A stretch of 8,364 nt of DNA, from positions 1 to 8,364 of IMG/VR virus record IMGVR_UViG_2778261360_000001. One strand, given 5' to 3'. The DNA is from a virus (Duplodnaviria > Heunggongvirae > Uroviricota > Caudoviricetes). Positions 1-7,774 of this stretch are shown piece by piece. The translations under genes and the position numbers were made by a program. Numbering within the stretch: position 1 is the stretch's first letter; each line of letters begins with the position of its first letter. The notes under the pieces were generated by a model. The model did not search any database. It had not been told where the DNA came from and worked only from the letters and a program-made list of their open reading frames with translations.

Positions 1-56
1 GAAGCAGAAAAAGCTTATTATGCTTCCATCGGAAACGATGATCTGGCAGCCTGAGT

Positions 57-2073: not shown

Positions 2074-3503
2074 TGTGATTGCCCACCCTGACCACTAACT
2101 GCATTCGCCATAGCTGACAAAACACTCGGATCCGAAGTTTTAGCTTCGCTTAGCGTCTTGGCACCCTGTGCCGCCGCCATCCCCATCGCCATCATTTGTT
2201 GCTGCTGTTGCTGCTGTGCCCGTTGCTGGCGAGCCTGCTCAACCTGTTCCTGCGGAACAATGACGGTTGGAGACACTCCGGACATATCAGCGAATGCATC
2301 GATCGCCTGATCAACGTTGAGTTTGTCGAGAGCTTCTGGTTTCGCTTGCGCAAGTTGACCAATGAAGTTAACCGTGGACGCCAGACTGGACAGGCCGATA
2401 GACTTCTGAGCCTGAGCCATGACGGAAATGTATTCGACCTTCAGGGGCATGCCTTCCATCGCGTCAGGCGGTGGCGGCAACATGTTTTTACGCACCATCA
2501 TCGAGAAAGCGCGGTCAATGAGAGGATTAAGACATTCGTCGTTCAGACGCTCCAGAACCGGCCCCAACATCAGAAGTTTTTCTTCTTTCATTTCGATCAC
2601 CGCTTCAACAGGCATCGAGCGGGTATTGATGTTCTGCAACATCATGAACAGATCGACAAAGTAGGCGCTGTTAATGATTTGCCGAGTGTCCTGAATGTCT
2701 GCTACCAGATCTGCTGTACTGGGGTTAACCAGATAAGCAGGCCTGAAGCCATCCTGACCAGTAATCTGATCGATATACGTGATGTCGCCAGGAAGAAGGG
2801 AGGTGCGCTGATTCTTGAGGGAAGTCGGAGCAACCATCGGCGGATTGGTGGCTTTATCAATCAACTGCGACTTGCGCTTCTGGAGAAGCTGCAATGCCTT
2901 AACAGGTCCAAGCGCCAGCATACCCGGGCATGATGATCCATAAACATCTTCGCCGTTAACTTCCCAGCGCGGAGCCATAATTGGAAACTCATCGAATCCT
3001 GACTCACGCAACAACTTGTCGTTATCGCCACCAACCTCGTAATAAACCGATTTGAATGGCTTGTTCTTGCTATCCAGCTTCGATGTATCGCGGTCAATGT
3101 TCGGGTAAACCGAATGCATCACTTCAATCCACTTCTCGTAGGTACCTCTTTCCCACATGCTTTTTACGGATTCGCTGACGTTATTTAGCCCGAACTCCTG
3201 AACAAGCTGACGAACAGTCATAGAGAACTTGCGAAAACAGGTGTCCACACTGCCACGAGGTGAGTTAGCCAGGTAGTAACTGCCTATCGGGAATGGCATT
3301 GTGCGAATGATGTCCTCGTCATCCTCCAGTACCGCCATTGCACCGGTGCTGTATGTGCCGAGGCTTCCGTATAACTGCGGCAGCGACTGATAGAGATTCG
3401 ACTTATTGAACATATCGTTCATGCGGTTCTGCACCGCCTCAAGCCACAACTTAACAGGGCCATAATCCATCATTTCAGGATCTGGCGTAGCCAGCGAAAC
3501 CAC
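2070..3503 (-). CDS. Portal protein, C-terminal segment (frame B) of a frameshifted portal gene. The ORF-finder start is an internal GTG with no SD.
   Basis: 477-codon ORF immediately downstream of terminase and upstream of scaffold and capsid. Its reading frame is open upstream of the nominal GTG and overlaps the end of ORF 3470-3748 in another frame. Contains a poly-Gln tract near the C-terminus. Confidence 0.7.
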   Translation of the reverse strand: MVSLATPDPEMMDYGPVKLWLEAVQNRMNDMFNKSNLYQSLPQLYGSLGTYSTGAMAVLEDDEDIIRTMPFPIGSYYLANSPRGSVDTCFRKFSMTVRQLVQEFGLNNVSESVKSMWERGTYEKWIEVMHSVYPNIDRDTSKLDSKNKPFKSVYYEVGGDNDKLLRESGFDEFPIMAPRWEVNGEDVYGSSCPGMLALGPVKALQLLQKRKSQLIDKATNPPMVAPTSLKNQRTSLLPGDITYIDQITGQDGFRPAYLVNPSTADLVADIQDTRQIINSAYFVDLFMMLQNINTRSMPVEAVIEMKEEKLLMLGPVLERLNDECLNPLIDRAFSMMVRKNMLPPPPDAMEGMPLKVEYISVMAQAQKSIGLSSLASTVNFIGQLAQAKPEALDKLNVDQAIDAFADMSGVSPTVIVPQEQVEQARQQRAQQQQQQQMMAMGMAAAQGAKTLSEAKTSDPSVLSAMANAVSGQGGQSQ

Positions 3504-4037: not shown

Positions 4038-4066
4038 TTGACATTTAACGCACGAATCATTACCTT
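4038..4066 (+). promoter_or_regulatory. Candidate sigma70-type promoter: TTGACA (4038-4043), 17-bp spacer, TACCTT (4061-4066)
   Basis: Perfect -35 hexamer with a 17-bp spacer and a weak -10 (T1, A2, T6 conserved), in an AT-rich intergenic stretch upstream of the plus-strand leader and tRNA. Confidence 0.3.
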
Positions 4067-4396
4067 TCAGGTAAGCAAAGAGTTCATTCCGGTTATTAAC
4101 CTGACTGGCTTGTCGTTAAATTGAACAGGTGGAGTGAGCTTTTATTTTGAGCAGTACGGCGTATGGCACATGCGCCGATAGCGGTCTGGATACGTTTAAG
4201 GGGCACCCTCCCTTGCTCGAGCAAACGAACCAGGTAGCCGGAATGTGCAAGTCGAGCGGTTTTATTCCGCGCACGGGGATTCACCATCCCGGCGATTCGG
4301 TGTGACGCCTCGGAAGAGACGAGGGTACAACGATGAGAGCATTTATGGAGCCGCGACAAAGTGTGGCGCCTTAACAGGCTAAGTGCTCTCAGCGTT

Positions 4397-5046: not shown

Positions 5047-5060
5047 CGTGACATGTCACA
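5047..5060. repeat. 14-bp sequence CGTGACATGTCACA with a 12-bp perfect palindrome core (GTGACATGTCAC), copy 1
   Basis: Identical 14-mer also at 7312-7325. Lies just after the stop of the 123-aa gene and in the 3' flank of terminase large. Confidence 0.8.
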
Positions 5061-5090: not shown

Positions 5091-5133
5091 ATCCTCACCA
5101 GAGGATATCAACGACATTATCCCCACCAGAGGA

Positions 5134-6609
5134 TTAAGCATAGGGATCGTAATCTGTGATGGCCTTGCCTTGCTGGTTCTGCTGCCCGGGAATTCGCAGA
5201 CGCTTCGACACAGGGAACGCAAACGTCAGCAGTAGCGCATCGCCTTTACCAGGAGAACGCCCAAGCCGCTCTTTGATATCTTCCTTCGGTTCGATAACGA
5301 TTTTACCGTCCACTCGAACTTTGTACTCTGCCGCCGACAGGTCGTCCGCTGTTTCCTGGTCATCCAGCATGCCGCCGAGCCTCAGCCATGTCTTGCATGC
5401 ATTGAACATCTCCCCACGCTTGTTAAGCATCTGCGGGTCAGTGGACGCACCGCCGAACGGAACAAGTTGCCATGTACGACCCCAGCCGTCACCGATTGAC
5501 TTCAGACCGGTACCGTAACCAAAGTCGATGAACACTGCGTCAGCCTGATACTGGTCTTCAAAGTCAGCGATACGCTTCGCCATAATCAGATCGTCGGTGG
5601 TCTTGTTACCAGTCCATAGCACCTTACTGTGCAGCCCCTGCCGCAGGTATATCACAGCGTCATCAACGCCGGAGTATGCCGGGTCAACGCCGATTATCAC
5701 CGGAGCATGTGCAACCTGCGCAGCGGTTACCACCCGTTTCATTGCCTCGTCAGTAAGGCCGGTAGGGATAAACTGCAATTCAGATGCATCCGGGAATATG
5801 CCGCGCACACGGATTTTAACGAAGTCGCTGTCTTCCCCGTAGTCATCAACCCATTTCTGCAACTGCTGTTTGTTAGTGCCTTCCACCGTCCGGCTGTCAA
5901 TCTGCGCAGTTTTCCAGCGGTGTTTATATTTGCGGAAACATTCGCGAAAACGCCCGGTGTTACGTGTAGGGTTTCCGAACGCCACCCAGATGATTTCGGT
6001 GTCTTCGTCCGTCAGCGCACCCTCTGCTACCTCCCACACCAGATCGGCAATGTTCGACGCTTCATCGAATACCACGATGATGCGTTTGCGCTCGTTGTGT
6101 AGTCCGGCGAATGCCTCAGTGTTGTGCTCAGACCAGGGGATTGCGTCAGCTCGCCACCGCTTGTCATGCCCAGGGTCATTGCTGTACATCGCGGTAGCAG
6201 TACAGGTAAACCAGTATTTCGTGATAGCAAGGTTCGACCACTTGATAATTTCCGGCCAGGTCTTCGTTCGTAGCTGGTTGTCGGTGTTGGCGGTCACCAC
6301 GACCTTACAATCCTCGCAAGTGGACATGCCCCAGTTGATCAGCATTGAGATGAATGCGGATTTACCAATACCGTGACCCGAAGCACGTGCCAGCATAAGC
6401 GGCTGATAGCGCGTCTCTGGATTCTGCAGGTGATCACGTATCTCTCGGAACGCATCAGCCTGCCACTTACGTGGACCGGTGGCATGTGCTAATTCAGTCC
6501 CCTCTTCCCCCCACGGGAACGCATAGAGGGCATAGCCAAGCGGATCGTGAGTGAACCCTGCAATATCCTCGATCAACTGCTCTTCAGGAGATAACGCTGT
6601 ATCTGTCAC
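5134..6609 (-). CDS. Terminase large subunit, 491 aa, GTG start overlapping the terminase small stop (GTGA)
   Basis: P-loop-like motif (ASGHGIGKS) in the N-terminal ATPase region, acidic-residue-rich C-terminal half consistent with a nuclease domain, size, and translational coupling to the upstream small-subunit gene. AGGA lies about 9 nt upstream of the GTG. Confidence 0.88.
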   Translation of the reverse strand: MTDTALSPEEQLIEDIAGFTHDPLGYALYAFPWGEEGTELAHATGPRKWQADAFREIRDHLQNPETRYQPLMLARASGHGIGKSAFISMLINWGMSTCEDCKVVVTANTDNQLRTKTWPEIIKWSNLAITKYWFTCTATAMYSNDPGHDKRWRADAIPWSEHNTEAFAGLHNERKRIIVVFDEASNIADLVWEVAEGALTDEDTEIIWVAFGNPTRNTGRFRECFRKYKHRWKTAQIDSRTVEGTNKQQLQKWVDDYGEDSDFVKIRVRGIFPDASELQFIPTGLTDEAMKRVVTAAQVAHAPVIIGVDPAYSGVDDAVIYLRQGLHSKVLWTGNKTTDDLIMAKRIADFEDQYQADAVFIDFGYGTGLKSIGDGWGRTWQLVPFGGASTDPQMLNKRGEMFNACKTWLRLGGMLDDQETADDLSAAEYKVRVDGKIVIEPKEDIKERLGRSPGKGDALLLTFAFPVSKRLRIPGQQNQQGKAITDYDPYA

Positions 6610-7202
6610 TGATTACCATCCTGACGTTCTTTGAGTCGCTTCCTGGCTGCTGCTATGCGATCAGCAATTGTCACATTCACATTAACATCCAGACGTTCTT
6701 TGAACGCGTTGACATCAACATGCTTACCAATCATCTCAAGGTTCTTCACCTTGTCAGGCCATTTAATTTTTTTGAGGATTGTCTCTATCGAATCCTCGTT
6801 CATGTTCATGATGGTCGATGACAGATCAAAGCCACTAAGCGTAGTGCGCCAGATTTTCGGCCACTCACGGATTGGTTTAAGGCTCCCATCGTCGTTGAGG
6901 ATGTCGATCACGTCCATCTGGTCGATCTCCACCAGGCGCATGAGAACGTAATCAGCACTGACGCGCATTCGTTTGTTGCGCTCCTCCATCAACTCGGCAA
7001 TCCGTTTTTGAATGCGTTCATCGCGCATCATGACACTGGCTTTAACTGCCGCTGTATTTGGGGAGAATCCTGCGTTAATCGCTGCCTGAGTCTGGTTTTC
7101 AGGCGTTTTGATGTATGACTGGCAATAAGCCTCCTGCATTGCTGTTAGTGGCTTAAATTGCGTTGATTTGCGTTTATAGGTTTTATGTTCAGCAGGCATC
7201 AT
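6606..7202 (-). CDS. Terminase small subunit, about 198 aa. Start is at the ATG-ATG pair at 7202/7199; the ORF-finder extension to 7280 uses a TTG and runs through a terminator hairpin.
   Basis: N-terminal region (KPLTAMQEAYCQSYIKTPENQTQAAINAGFSPNTAAVKA...) matches the helix-turn-helix N-terminus typical of phage small terminase subunits. Lies immediately upstream of, and overlaps, the terminase large gene. Confidence 0.8.
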   Translation of the reverse strand: MMPAEHKTYKRKSTQFKPLTAMQEAYCQSYIKTPENQTQAAINAGFSPNTAAVKASVMMRDERIQKRIAELMEERNKRMRVSADYVLMRLVEIDQMDVIDILNDDGSLKPIREWPKIWRTTLSGFDLSSTIMNMNEDSIETILKKIKWPDKVKNLEMIGKHVDVNAFKERLDVNVNVTIADRIAAARKRLKERQDGNQ

Positions 7203-7209
7203 AACCACC

Positions 7210-7238
7210 GTGGTAATAGTTACCGTTGTGGTAATAGT
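7210..7238. repeat. Two exact 11-bp direct repeats, GTGGTAATAGT at 7210-7220 and 7228-7238, each followed by (T)ACC, directly upstream of the terminase small start
   Basis: Read directly from the sequence; 18-bp periodicity. On the minus strand the unit is ACTATTACCAC, repeated twice. Confidence 0.8.
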
Positions 7239-7243
7239 ACCAT

Positions 7244-7271
7244 GCAAAATAAAGCCGCCATAGTTGGCGGC
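7244..7271 (-). terminator. Intrinsic terminator on the minus strand between the small upstream genes and terminase small
   Basis: 7-bp stem GCCGCCA/TGGCGGC with a 4-nt loop (7254-7271), followed on the minus-strand transcript by UUUAUUUUG (plus-strand 7244-7253 is GCAAAATAAA). Confidence 0.6.
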
Positions 7272-7311
7272 AGTATTCAAAACCCATCAAATTCATCATG
7301 CATAATCTACT

Positions 7312-7325
7312 CGTGACATGTCACA
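7312..7325. repeat. 14-bp sequence CGTGACATGTCACA (12-bp perfect palindrome core), copy 2; overlaps the stop codon of the RHH-like ORF
   Basis: Identical to 5047-5060. Confidence 0.8.
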
Positions 7326-7659
7326 CTATTAATTTCGTTTCATGCCAGCCTTTGGTCACCCAGCATTGCGAGTCACCATTACACGGGCATGAATTCACAG
7401 GAACTCTCTCGCCGCACTTACCGCAACGTTTTCTGCTGATCGATTTTATACGCCCGCGCACGCGTGCATCATCCTGGCGGATCAGCAGCGCGATGTACTC
7501 GGCCATTTCATAGGGATCGCGACCAGGGCGCCGGGCGGCGCAGTTCCGCGCCAGCATTTCCTGCTCCTGCTTATCCAGCACCAGTTCAATTTTGCGCTCA
7601 CCGGCGGCGGACTGCCGAGCGCGCTGCGCGGCTTTGCGTTCTGCGGGGGATTTAGCCAC
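7321..7659 (-). CDS. Putative small DNA-binding protein, about 112 aa: ribbon-helix-helix-like N-terminus and Cys-rich (zinc-ribbon-like) C-terminus. GTG start at 7659 or 7668.
   Basis: An RKIELVLD strand-like segment followed by a helix fits the RHH pattern; C-terminal CGKCG...CPC...C cluster. No ATG until codon 38 of the longest ORF. GGAG lies 8 nt upstream of the GTG at 7659. The start region overlaps the end of the 40-aa peptide ORF. Confidence 0.5.
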   Translation of the reverse strand: MAKSPAERKAAQRARQSAAGERKIELVLDKQEQEMLARNCAARRPGRDPYEMAEYIALLIRQDDARVRGRIKSISRKRCGKCGERVPVNSCPCNGDSQCWVTKGWHETKLIV

Positions 7660-7774
7660 GAATCGCACTCCACGCCAGATTGATTAATGACTCCCAGGCA
7701 ATATAAACCCGGATACCAGCAGCCAGGCCGAAACCAATCACCATGGCATAAAGCAGAGCGTTGCACTTGTTCAT
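7652..7774 (-). CDS. Small hydrophobic membrane peptide, 40 aa (MNKCNALLYAMVIGFGLAAGIRVYIAWESLINLAWSAIRG); not in the supplied ORF track
   Basis: ATG at 7774 overlaps the TAA stop of the DUF551-like gene (TAATG) and is preceded by a strong SD (AGGAGGTGAAGTA-ATG). One predicted transmembrane segment. Hand-translated from the sequence. Confidence 0.5.
   Translation of the reverse strand: MNKCNALLYAMVIGFGLAAGIRVYIAWESLINLAWSAIRG

Follow-up and report, generated by a model that had tools for sequence, protein, structure and literature searches.

Gene content and relatives of the window

The window, by which we mean the whole 8,364-nucleotide stretch of viral DNA that was analysed, was assigned by DNA searches to the epsilon15/phiV10-like temperate podoviruses of the genus Uetakevirus and is read as a prophage. 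The locus described here lies between the gene for a small Cys-rich protein and the small-terminase gene terS, and the genes around it are the following.

8079-7774, minus strand: gene for a DUF551 protein
7659-7321, minus strand: gene for a 112-aa Cys-rich protein (112-115 aa, with the start at 7668 or 7659), homolog of epsilon15 gp49 and member of PHROG 536, labelled 'transcriptional regulator'
6606..7199, minus strand: terS, small terminase (Pfam Terminase_2, 1.8e-29; PHROG 51), with a further in-frame ATG at 7202-7200
7209-7205, minus strand: Shine-Dalgarno GGTGG of terS, unchanged in 45/45 natural variants
6609-5134, minus strand: terL, large terminase
3503-2070, minus strand: T7-like portal
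1070-57, minus strand: major capsid protein of the epsilon15 gp7 type

The terS product also matches the structure of G1P from Bacillus phage SF6 (PDB 3ZQP, 1.1e-6). Translation of terS probably starts at the ATG at 7199-7197 rather than at 7202-7200, since the 594-nt terS coding sequence annotated in the close relatives TL-2011b and ZX5 corresponds to this second ATG and since its spacing from the GGTGG Shine-Dalgarno, 5 nt in the window and equally 5 nt in epsilon15, is the better one. The junction upstream of terS is 98-99.5% identical to those of phiV10, TL-2011b, ZX5 and PAS61, is 80-86% identical to those of epsilon15, SPN1S, PAT1 and Tyrion, and was found in 503 of 5,426 complete E. coli genomes (~9%). 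ZX5, 99% identical across the terS junction, was taken as the closest complete relative.

The intrinsic terminator ahead of terS

The preliminary description of this DNA had placed a strong intrinsic terminator on the minus strand ahead of terS, and the feature was recovered independently by the terminator scan, by RNA folding and by comparison with the epsilon15 annotation.

7271-7244, minus strand: intrinsic terminator, comprising a stem-loop, GCCGCCA-ACTA-TGGCGGC (7271-7254), and after it a T-rich tail, TTTATTTTGC (7253-7244)

The terminator scan reported a hairpin of 7 pairs, 6 of them G-C, followed by TTTATTTT. The predicted RNA fold has an energy of -16.2 kcal/mol, compared with -6.0 +/- 1.95 for shuffled sequences (z = -5.2), and 0/200 shuffles were as stable, so that the element combines the GC-rich hairpin, U-tract and stable fold by which intrinsic terminators are recognised. 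The terminator is kept in epsilon15, in PAT1, in the Klebsiella phage and in most of the IMG/VR relatives, and the epsilon15 record marks the hairpin just upstream of the homologous operator as a rho-independent terminator. In the arrangement that we propose, it would stop transcription of the early, nin-like unit arriving through the gene for the 112-aa regulator, which is the last gene of that unit.

Direct repeats and predicted palindromic operators upstream of terS

Between the terminator and terS, the preliminary description had reported two exact 11-bp direct repeats with 18-bp phasing, which it read as a candidate terminase-binding or cos/pac-associated region or, alternatively, as operator or promoter elements. 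Both copies are present, and they overlap a candidate promoter element and two palindromes, here called O1 and O2; a further palindrome of the same kind lies elsewhere in the window.

7242-7234, minus strand: candidate extended -10 element TGgTACTAT (TG at 7242-7241, hexamer TACTAT at 7239-7234), abutting O1
7238-7228, minus strand: direct repeat copy 1, ACTATTACCAC, formed from the final 4 bases of the -10 hexamer, the left half-site of O1 and 2 bases of its spacer
7235-7219, palindrome: predicted operator O1, ATTACC-ACAAC-GGTAAC on the minus strand, 1 mismatch, holding most of direct repeat 1
7220-7210, minus strand: direct repeat copy 2, ACTATTACCAC, formed from the final 2 bases of O1 (AC), a gap of 1 bp, the left half-site of O2 and 2 bases of its spacer
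7217-7201, palindrome: predicted operator O2, ATTACC-ACGGT-GGTTAT on the minus strand, 1 mismatch, holding most of direct repeat 2
4059-4075, palindrome: predicted third operator, CTTACC-TGAAA-GGTAAT on the minus strand, 1 mismatch

The two copies of ACTATTACCAC are exact and lie 18 nt apart from start to start, with 7 nt from the end of copy 2 to the first ATG (7202-7200) and 10 nt to the second (7199-7197). An exact 11-mer repeated within 30 nt was also found in 14/300 shuffled windows (~5%), and the bare repeat therefore stands only weakly beyond chance. The unit that the junctions of PAT1, BUCT554 and the Klebsiella phage have in common is an inverted repeat, ATTACC-N5-GGTAAT, and not the direct repeat. 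With up to 2 mismatches allowed, this motif has 3 matches in the window, each with a single mismatch, compared with 0.14 expected, and 0/200 shuffles reach 3. Two of the matches are O1 and O2, the latter overlapping the Shine-Dalgarno and the first ATG of terS, and the third is positioned ~90 bp upstream of the homolog of epsilon15 gp3, the first gene of the portal/head operon. The direct repeats are thus best described as the left halves of two palindromic predicted operators together with a few flanking bases. The 11-mer also has a third near-copy, at 8352-8342, which lies within coding sequence, has no partner half-site and was dismissed as a chance match.

The annotation of epsilon15 (NC_004775.2 / AY150271.2) points in the same direction. 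O1 aligns with the epsilon15 feature protein_bind 12..27, labelled 'repressor; lysogeny' and situated just before terS, and the window site at 4059-4075 is the homolog of protein_bind 2931..2947, labelled 'repressor'. Besides 12..27, six epsilon15 sites of the same consensus are annotated as repressor-binding in all, a GenBank label that may itself be a prediction. The epsilon15 counterpart of O2 has 2 mismatches and is unannotated. O1 and O2 are, on this basis, predicted repressor operators of the epsilon15 (Uetakevirus) type, a feature already known from the epsilon15 annotation, to which the present analysis adds the small refinements of a tandem second operator, O2, over the ribosome-binding site and of a conserved extended -10 element.

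Natural variation of the terS junction

To define which parts of the junction are held constant we compared the 125 bp that precede terS in 80 IMG/VR relatives and in phage records, which together yielded 45 unique sequences. The left half-site of O1 and the GGTAA of its right half are invariant in the 45 variants, and the O1 spacer varies at 4/5 positions. In O2 the bases of ATTAC are kept in 44-45/45 variants per position, and the second site as a whole has 1-2 mismatches in 44/45; it follows O1 by 18 bp in 42/45 variants and by 20 bp in the other 3/45. The N5 spacers and the outer bases that make the two 11-mers identical in the window vary among the 45 variants, and repeat copy 2 reads ACAATTACCAC, ...CCAT, ...CCAA or ...CCAG, so identity of the 11-mers is not a conserved property. 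The expectation that the repeats would be conserved in relatives is accordingly borne out for the half-sites ATTACC and GGTAA(T/C), which are kept across the 45 variants, and not for the 11-mers as such.

The candidate -10 element is constrained in the same manner: the TG, TA and AT of TGnTAnnAT are invariant in the 45 variants and the bases between them vary. The promoter and operator module is also kept in relatives that have no terminator at this place (BUCT554, L068 and L088-L090). In the BUCT554-like relatives a small gene takes the place of the terminator ahead of the module, and the DNA upstream of the module is consequently unrelated. Relatives that retain the operator element at terS come from four host genera, Escherichia, Salmonella, Enterobacter and Klebsiella.

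Genome-wide distribution of the operator motif

In epsilon15, SPC32H, ZX5 and BUCT554, whose genomes are complete, the motif has 15-18 matches per genome with up to 2 mismatches, compared with 1.1-1.6 in shuffled sequences (~1.4 expected). Sites with no more than 1 mismatch lie exclusively between genes (11/11 in epsilon15 and 10/10 in ZX5), and because intergenic DNA makes up only 6.6% of the epsilon15 genome and 8.6% of that of ZX5, the probability of such a placement by chance is ~1e-13 and ~2e-11, respectively. In the complete relatives, the leftward early promoter region and the interval between rep and the cro-like gene hold three sites each, with further sites ahead of terS, the gp3/portal operon, the lysis genes and the nin-like genes, and in the divergent region between the antirepressor and tail-spike genes. 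The clusters thus stand on both flanks of rep in ZX5, epsilon15, SPC32H and BUCT554; the immunity region is not contained in the 8.4-kb window. This distribution is that expected of the operator of an immunity repressor and not that of a unique packaging signal.

These data also bear on the simplest account of the 11-nt repeat, namely that it is a functionless chance duplication or the product of recent slippage. The frequency of ~5% at which shuffled windows hold an exact 11-mer repeat within 30 nt would be compatible with such an origin. However, the site-specific pattern of conservation over four host genera and the more than 10-fold genome-wide enrichment of the operator motif leave it with virtually no likelihood, and we regard chance duplication of the 11-mer as effectively refuted by the conservation data.

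Pairs of sites 62 bp apart were seen to recur at several loci.

Relation of the repeats to DNA packaging

The position of the repeats is one that is known from packaging sites, since lambda cosB and SPP1 pacL sit immediately upstream of the small-terminase gene. In this reading, the repeats would be recognition sites for the small terminase, equivalent to the R sites of cosB or to SPP1 pacL, and would mark the start of packaging. Like those of lambda cosB (R1-R3, I1) and SPP1 pacL, the repeats described here are short and directly precede terS, and TerS belongs to the Terminase_2 / SF6 G1P family, the Pfam family of the pac-site-recognising SPP1/SF6 G1P, in agreement with a packaging system of the SPP1 pac type. 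The phiV10 and epsilon15 records, moreover, open within ~120 bp of the repeats.

Several observations nonetheless make this reading very improbable. The motif at terS is present in 10-11 intergenic copies per relative genome, among them copies on either flank of the repressor gene and at the start of operons that have no part in packaging, and the conserved unit is a 17-bp palindrome of the sort typical of dimeric helix-turn-helix repressors. The analogy with lambda cosB fails on a defining feature, because TerS is not of the Nu1 type and matches Terminase_2 and 3ZQP instead. Repeats specific to a cos site would be accompanied by a cosN nicking site and fixed cohesive ends; here, the motif occurs genome-wide and neither a cleavage site nor a fixed end is evident. 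Among close relatives the deposited records begin at many different points (terS lies at 6.3, 11.5, 12.3, 12.9, 19.5, 26.4 and 33.7 kb), so nothing points to a fixed end at the repeats, and the record starts of epsilon15 and phiV10 look like a convention of opening the sequence at terS, given that the other relatives start elsewhere. IMG/VR contigs likewise end at scattered distances upstream of terS, from 49 to ~2,100 nt. For G1P-type TerS, moreover, multiple sequence-independent helix-turn-helix contacts with DNA are reported (PMC4737164), and binding so described is largely without sequence specificity, which likewise argues against the repeats as TerS recognition sites.

The earlier proposal of a terminase-binding, cosB-like cos/pac region is in consequence not supported by a motif that is multi-copy, palindromic and part of an operator family, by the family of TerS or by the scattered record starts. 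It is possible that a pac site lies somewhere in or near terS, with nothing to tie it to the repeats. TerL has no PDB sequence match at E < 0.01 and no Pfam or NCBIfam match, so that the packaging type cannot be inferred from it, and neither a packaging mode nor virion ends for Uetakevirus were found in the literature searched; a full-text literature search for the operator sequences returned nothing relevant. That O1 and O2 double as an entry site for TerS, with repressor occupancy competing with the initiation of packaging, is still less likely than the second layer of control considered at the end of the comparison with other phages. The locus probably serves ordinary prophage gene control rather than DNA packaging, since the repeats are half-sites of predicted operators set on a small candidate promoter and the epsilon15 homolog of O1 is annotated as repressor-binding. 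Repeats adjoining terS are thus not automatically cos or pac elements, and correcting this tempting misreading is of little import beyond annotation.

Predicted promoter and model of regulation

The preliminary description had also suggested a possible extended -10 element, TGGTACTAT, after the terminator. As a candidate the element holds up well: at 7242-7234 a TG lies one base upstream of a TAnnnT hexamer and is conserved with it among relatives, and the TG, TA and AT that are unchanged in the 45 variants form the invariant TGnTAnnAT signature of an extended -10 promoter, from which an active promoter is predicted. The last two bases of the element are also the first two of O1. No recognisable -35 element is present at the candidate promoter, for which reason the two-hexamer scan does not list it, and transcription from it may therefore be weak or depend on an activator, for which the 112-aa protein encoded just upstream is a candidate. 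Transcription is predicted to start at ~7227. In this arrangement, the extended -10 promoter would restart transcription at ~7227 into terS-terL, with O1 spanning ~-8 to +9 and O2 ~+11 to +27.

The palindromes, the epsilon15 annotation and the conservation of the -10 element together favour the alternative that the preliminary description had offered, operator or promoter elements that restart transcription. We consider it quite probable, as judged from sequence comparison, that the locus forms the junction of the early-right and packaging operons, where a terminator is followed by a restart promoter that is repressed by Rep through O1 and O2. In lysogens, the prophage repressor, of the SPC32H Rep family, would occupy O1 and O2, block RNA polymerase and silence the terminase genes, and an antirepressor that inactivates Rep would vacate O1/O2 and relieve the repression. 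If binding by Rep at this place is true, the junction would constitute a compact repressible promoter module in which, unlike in lambda, the immunity repressor acts directly on late packaging genes.

Rep as the predicted operator-binding protein

Rep is the protein that we predict to be bound at O1 and O2. A Rep homolog is encoded in 99/101 related loci of at least 18 kb; the window itself contains no rep, and its own phage, to judge by these relatives, presumably carries one. The Rep of ZX5 matches the structure of SPC32H Rep (5D50) over its full length (4e-42). The phiV10/ZX5-type Rep and the epsilon15 repressor (gp38) are 42% identical overall and 53% identical in the N-terminal domain, in which the stretch NLVNRW is identical in both Rep types. 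NLVNRW is a candidate recognition helix, and its identity in the two types fits the half-site that they share. According to the part of PMC9638917 that describes Kim et al. 2016, Rep binds palindromic DNA as a tetramer, and a tetramer as described there would provide two pairs of DNA-binding domains, which suits paired operators. In the phage collection, Rep homologs are confined to this phage group and Rep and TerS always co-occur, with no natural module swap (the same TerS with another immunity, or Rep with another terminase), so that a motif that goes with Rep is not separable from one that goes with TerS.

As a separate matter of geometry, the 18-bp centre-to-centre spacing sets O1 and O2 on different faces of the helix, which counts against simple bridging of the two by one tetramer.

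It is unlikely that O1 and O2 are read by another phage regulator and not by Rep, whether by the Cro-like 76-aa protein or by the 112-aa Cys-rich protein acting as a late activator. Sharing operators with the repressor is normal for Cro-type proteins, and the helix-turn-helix of the Cro-like protein (GTTSHYIQTHL) is conserved among relatives. The end of an early operon ahead of the late genes is the classical position of a late regulator, and the 112-aa gene occupies just this position, directly ahead of the late genes, in the window as well as in a distant Vibrio phage; a weak promoter without a -35 may, in addition, need an activator. However, the arrangement of three sites on each side of rep, at early promoters, is the signature of an immunity repressor and Cro rather than of a late activator, and the operators at terS overlap the -10 element and extend downstream from it, in a repressing and not an activating position. 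The 112-aa protein also has no detectable DNA-binding family or fold match: no sequence match was found in Pfam (even at E = 10), NCBIfam or the PDB, and its AlphaFold model (mean pLDDT 70) gave no Foldseek match in the PDB with E < 2. The protein may possibly combine a ribbon-helix-helix with a zinc ribbon.

RNA structure of the terS leader

Were the repeats instead to act in RNA, the leader could form hairpins (UUACC...GGUAA and CCAC...GUGG) that mask the ribosome-binding site of terS. The palindromes can indeed form short hairpins, and O2 overlaps the Shine-Dalgarno and start codon. Yet the leader folds no better than shuffled sequences (z = -0.67 and -1.41), and the Rfam search of the leader gave no family at threshold, its sole match being rseX, which scored 27.8 bits where the gathering score is 50 (E = 0.33). 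The same palindrome, furthermore, is present in untranscribed promoter regions and, at the gp3 operon, upstream of the -10 element, and the half-sites, being without variation, offer no compensatory changes that would speak for pairing. Such a role for the repeats is scarcely credible, and an RNA-structure reading of the leader was rejected on the non-significant z-scores and on the Rfam result.

Comparison with operators of other temperate phages

The closest counterparts of O1 and O2 are the epsilon15 operators, which have the same position between terminator and terS and the same 17-bp hyphenated palindrome, in flanking DNA that is ~80-83% identical; the rest of the operator family is also common to both, namely the sites that flank rep and those ahead of late operons. 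In the window, by comparison with epsilon15, the right half of O1 is GGTAAC and O2 matches the consensus better, with 1 mismatch against 2 in epsilon15, and it is this better match that makes the two 11-nt direct repeats exact. Between the phiV10/ZX5 lineage and epsilon15 the repressors are only ~42% identical. SPC32H offers a related lysis-lysogeny switch, Rep/Ant, in which Rep (5D50) is homologous to the phiV10/ZX5-type repressor and terS is preceded by the same operator in the same place (position 11-27). The antirepressor differs, being a Bro-type protein in the phiV10/ZX5 lineage. Some relatives have a small LexA-controlled gene, possibly an antirepressor gene, between the regulator gene and terS, which this window does not have.

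The OR and OL operators of lambda and P22 are likewise 17-bp, dyad-symmetric tandem sites placed over a promoter and read by a helix-turn-helix repressor, with three on each side of the repressor gene. The lambda repressor acts only at early promoters and reaches the late genes indirectly, through Q, whereas here operators of the same family stand directly on the late packaging, head, tail-spike and lysis units. A scattering of one motif over many intergenic sites, including sites within or ahead of late units, is known from the C1 operators of P1 and from the gp71 stoperators of mycobacteriophage L5, and the motif described here is scattered over many intergenic sites as well. L5 stoperators block elongation and are asymmetric sites that depend on orientation, in contrast to the sites described here, which are symmetric and which, at terS, overlap the predicted promoter start. 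That one repressor directly gates every transcription unit through about a dozen operators, the terminase promoter included, with a second, so far undescribed layer of control in addition, is an unlikely further reading.

A further element was observed near the terminators. An exact 12-bp palindrome, GTGACATGTCAC, is found 1-41 nt upstream of the intrinsic terminator at three operon ends per genome, and one copy overlaps the stop codon of the 112-aa gene, 41 nt before the terminator at 7271-7244. It is absent from the loci of distant 112-aa homologs in Vibrio and Yersinia phages and is thus not a general partner of the 112-aa protein. If it is true that GTGACATGTCAC is a protein-binding or RNA site that modulates terminators, it would supply this second layer, and the terminator ahead of terS would control entry into the late genes as a regulated gate. 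The gate could operate through read-through that depends on a factor, or GTGACATGTCAC could act as a roadblock that strengthens termination, with O1 and O2 forming a repressor roadblock behind it.

The regulator gene and the palindrome that follows it

The final gene ahead of the late genes encodes a 112-aa conserved protein, a homolog of epsilon15 gp49 that is assigned to PHROG 536, "transcriptional regulator". C79, C82 and C91 are invariant in this protein and C93 and C99 are nearly so. All 738 homologs are labeled hypothetical, no match was found in Pfam, NCBIfam or the PDB, and the AlphaFold model (pLDDT 70) returned no fold match. In Vibrio phages, distant homologs precede the lysis/terminase genes; in P2-like Yersinia phages they follow gpA.

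Positions of these features in the window:
7321–7659 (−), 112-aa conserved protein, epsilon15 gp49 homolog
7313–7324 and 5048–5059, exact copies of the palindrome GTGACATGTCAC
7324–7295, promoter-like site GTGACA-18-CATGAT, at the start of the rseX match
7247–7332 (−), sub-threshold rseX match

The 12-bp exact palindrome GTGACATGTCAC is present in two copies in the window and in about three copies per related genome (epsilon15: 2142, 19517 and 39612; ZX5: 19535, 21800 and 39430), with a chance expectation of ~0.005 copies per 40 kb. Every copy lies directly 3′ of an ORF stop and is followed 1–41 nt downstream by an intrinsic terminator, the three sites being the ends of the 112-aa regulator gene, of a reverse ORF after the large terminase gene terL, and of the structural operon. 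The palindrome was not found at the stop of the distant regulator homologs of the Vibrio and Yersinia phages.

The stretch from this palindrome to the terminator was matched over the full model length by the Rfam model of rseX, an Hfq-binding sRNA, at 27.8 bits versus a gathering score of 50 (E = 0.33). Since the sequence of the spacer is not conserved in epsilon15, the match is probably due to chance.

The region preceding terS

In many relatives a small gene sits between GTGACATGTCAC and the promoter module of terS, the small terminase gene, as observed in BUCT554 (1090–1490), Klebsiella phage ST512-KPC3phi13.3 (1170–1500) and many IMG/VR loci. Its upstream promoter overlaps a perfect LexA box, TACTGTTTAAAT(G/A)TACAGTA, and the insertion looks like an SOS-controlled antirepressor-type cassette. 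The window lacks this cassette and retains a short remnant (…AGATTATGCATGAT…).

The terS frame is open upstream across the operators and the terminator, up to a TTG at 7280 (6606–7280, −), and an extended TerS is annotated in the PAT1 record (1498–2169). Conservation of the Shine-Dalgarno sequence and ATG, and not of the sequence upstream, indicates that the extension is an annotation artefact; translation most probably begins at the second ATG (7199).

Operator spacing and other repeats

ATTACC-N5-GGTAAT operators recur in the whole genomes of relatives (epsilon15, ZX5 and BUCT554) as pairs exactly 62 bp apart, start to start, which suggests looping by a tetrameric repressor.

Examples of operator pairs with 62-bp spacing:
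epsilon15, 32554/32616 and 35906/35968
ZX5, 13047/13109 and 16108/16170
BUCT554, 11579/11641 and 14643/14705

In the terS pair, and in one pair located between the cro-like gene and the repressor gene rep (33340/33357 in epsilon15), the operators are instead adjacent, at a distance of 17–20 bp.

A second 11-nt exact direct repeat, ATCCTCTGGTG (minus strand, 5096–5134, spacing 28 nt), begins at the terL stop codon, and its second copy forms part of a hairpin, ATCCTC-TGGT-GAGGAT, positioned just ahead of the convergent terminator and the 12-bp palindrome. Separately, a short tandem repeat with a period of 9 nt (TGTTGCTGC…) is located at 2197–2217, within the 3′ portion of the portal gene.
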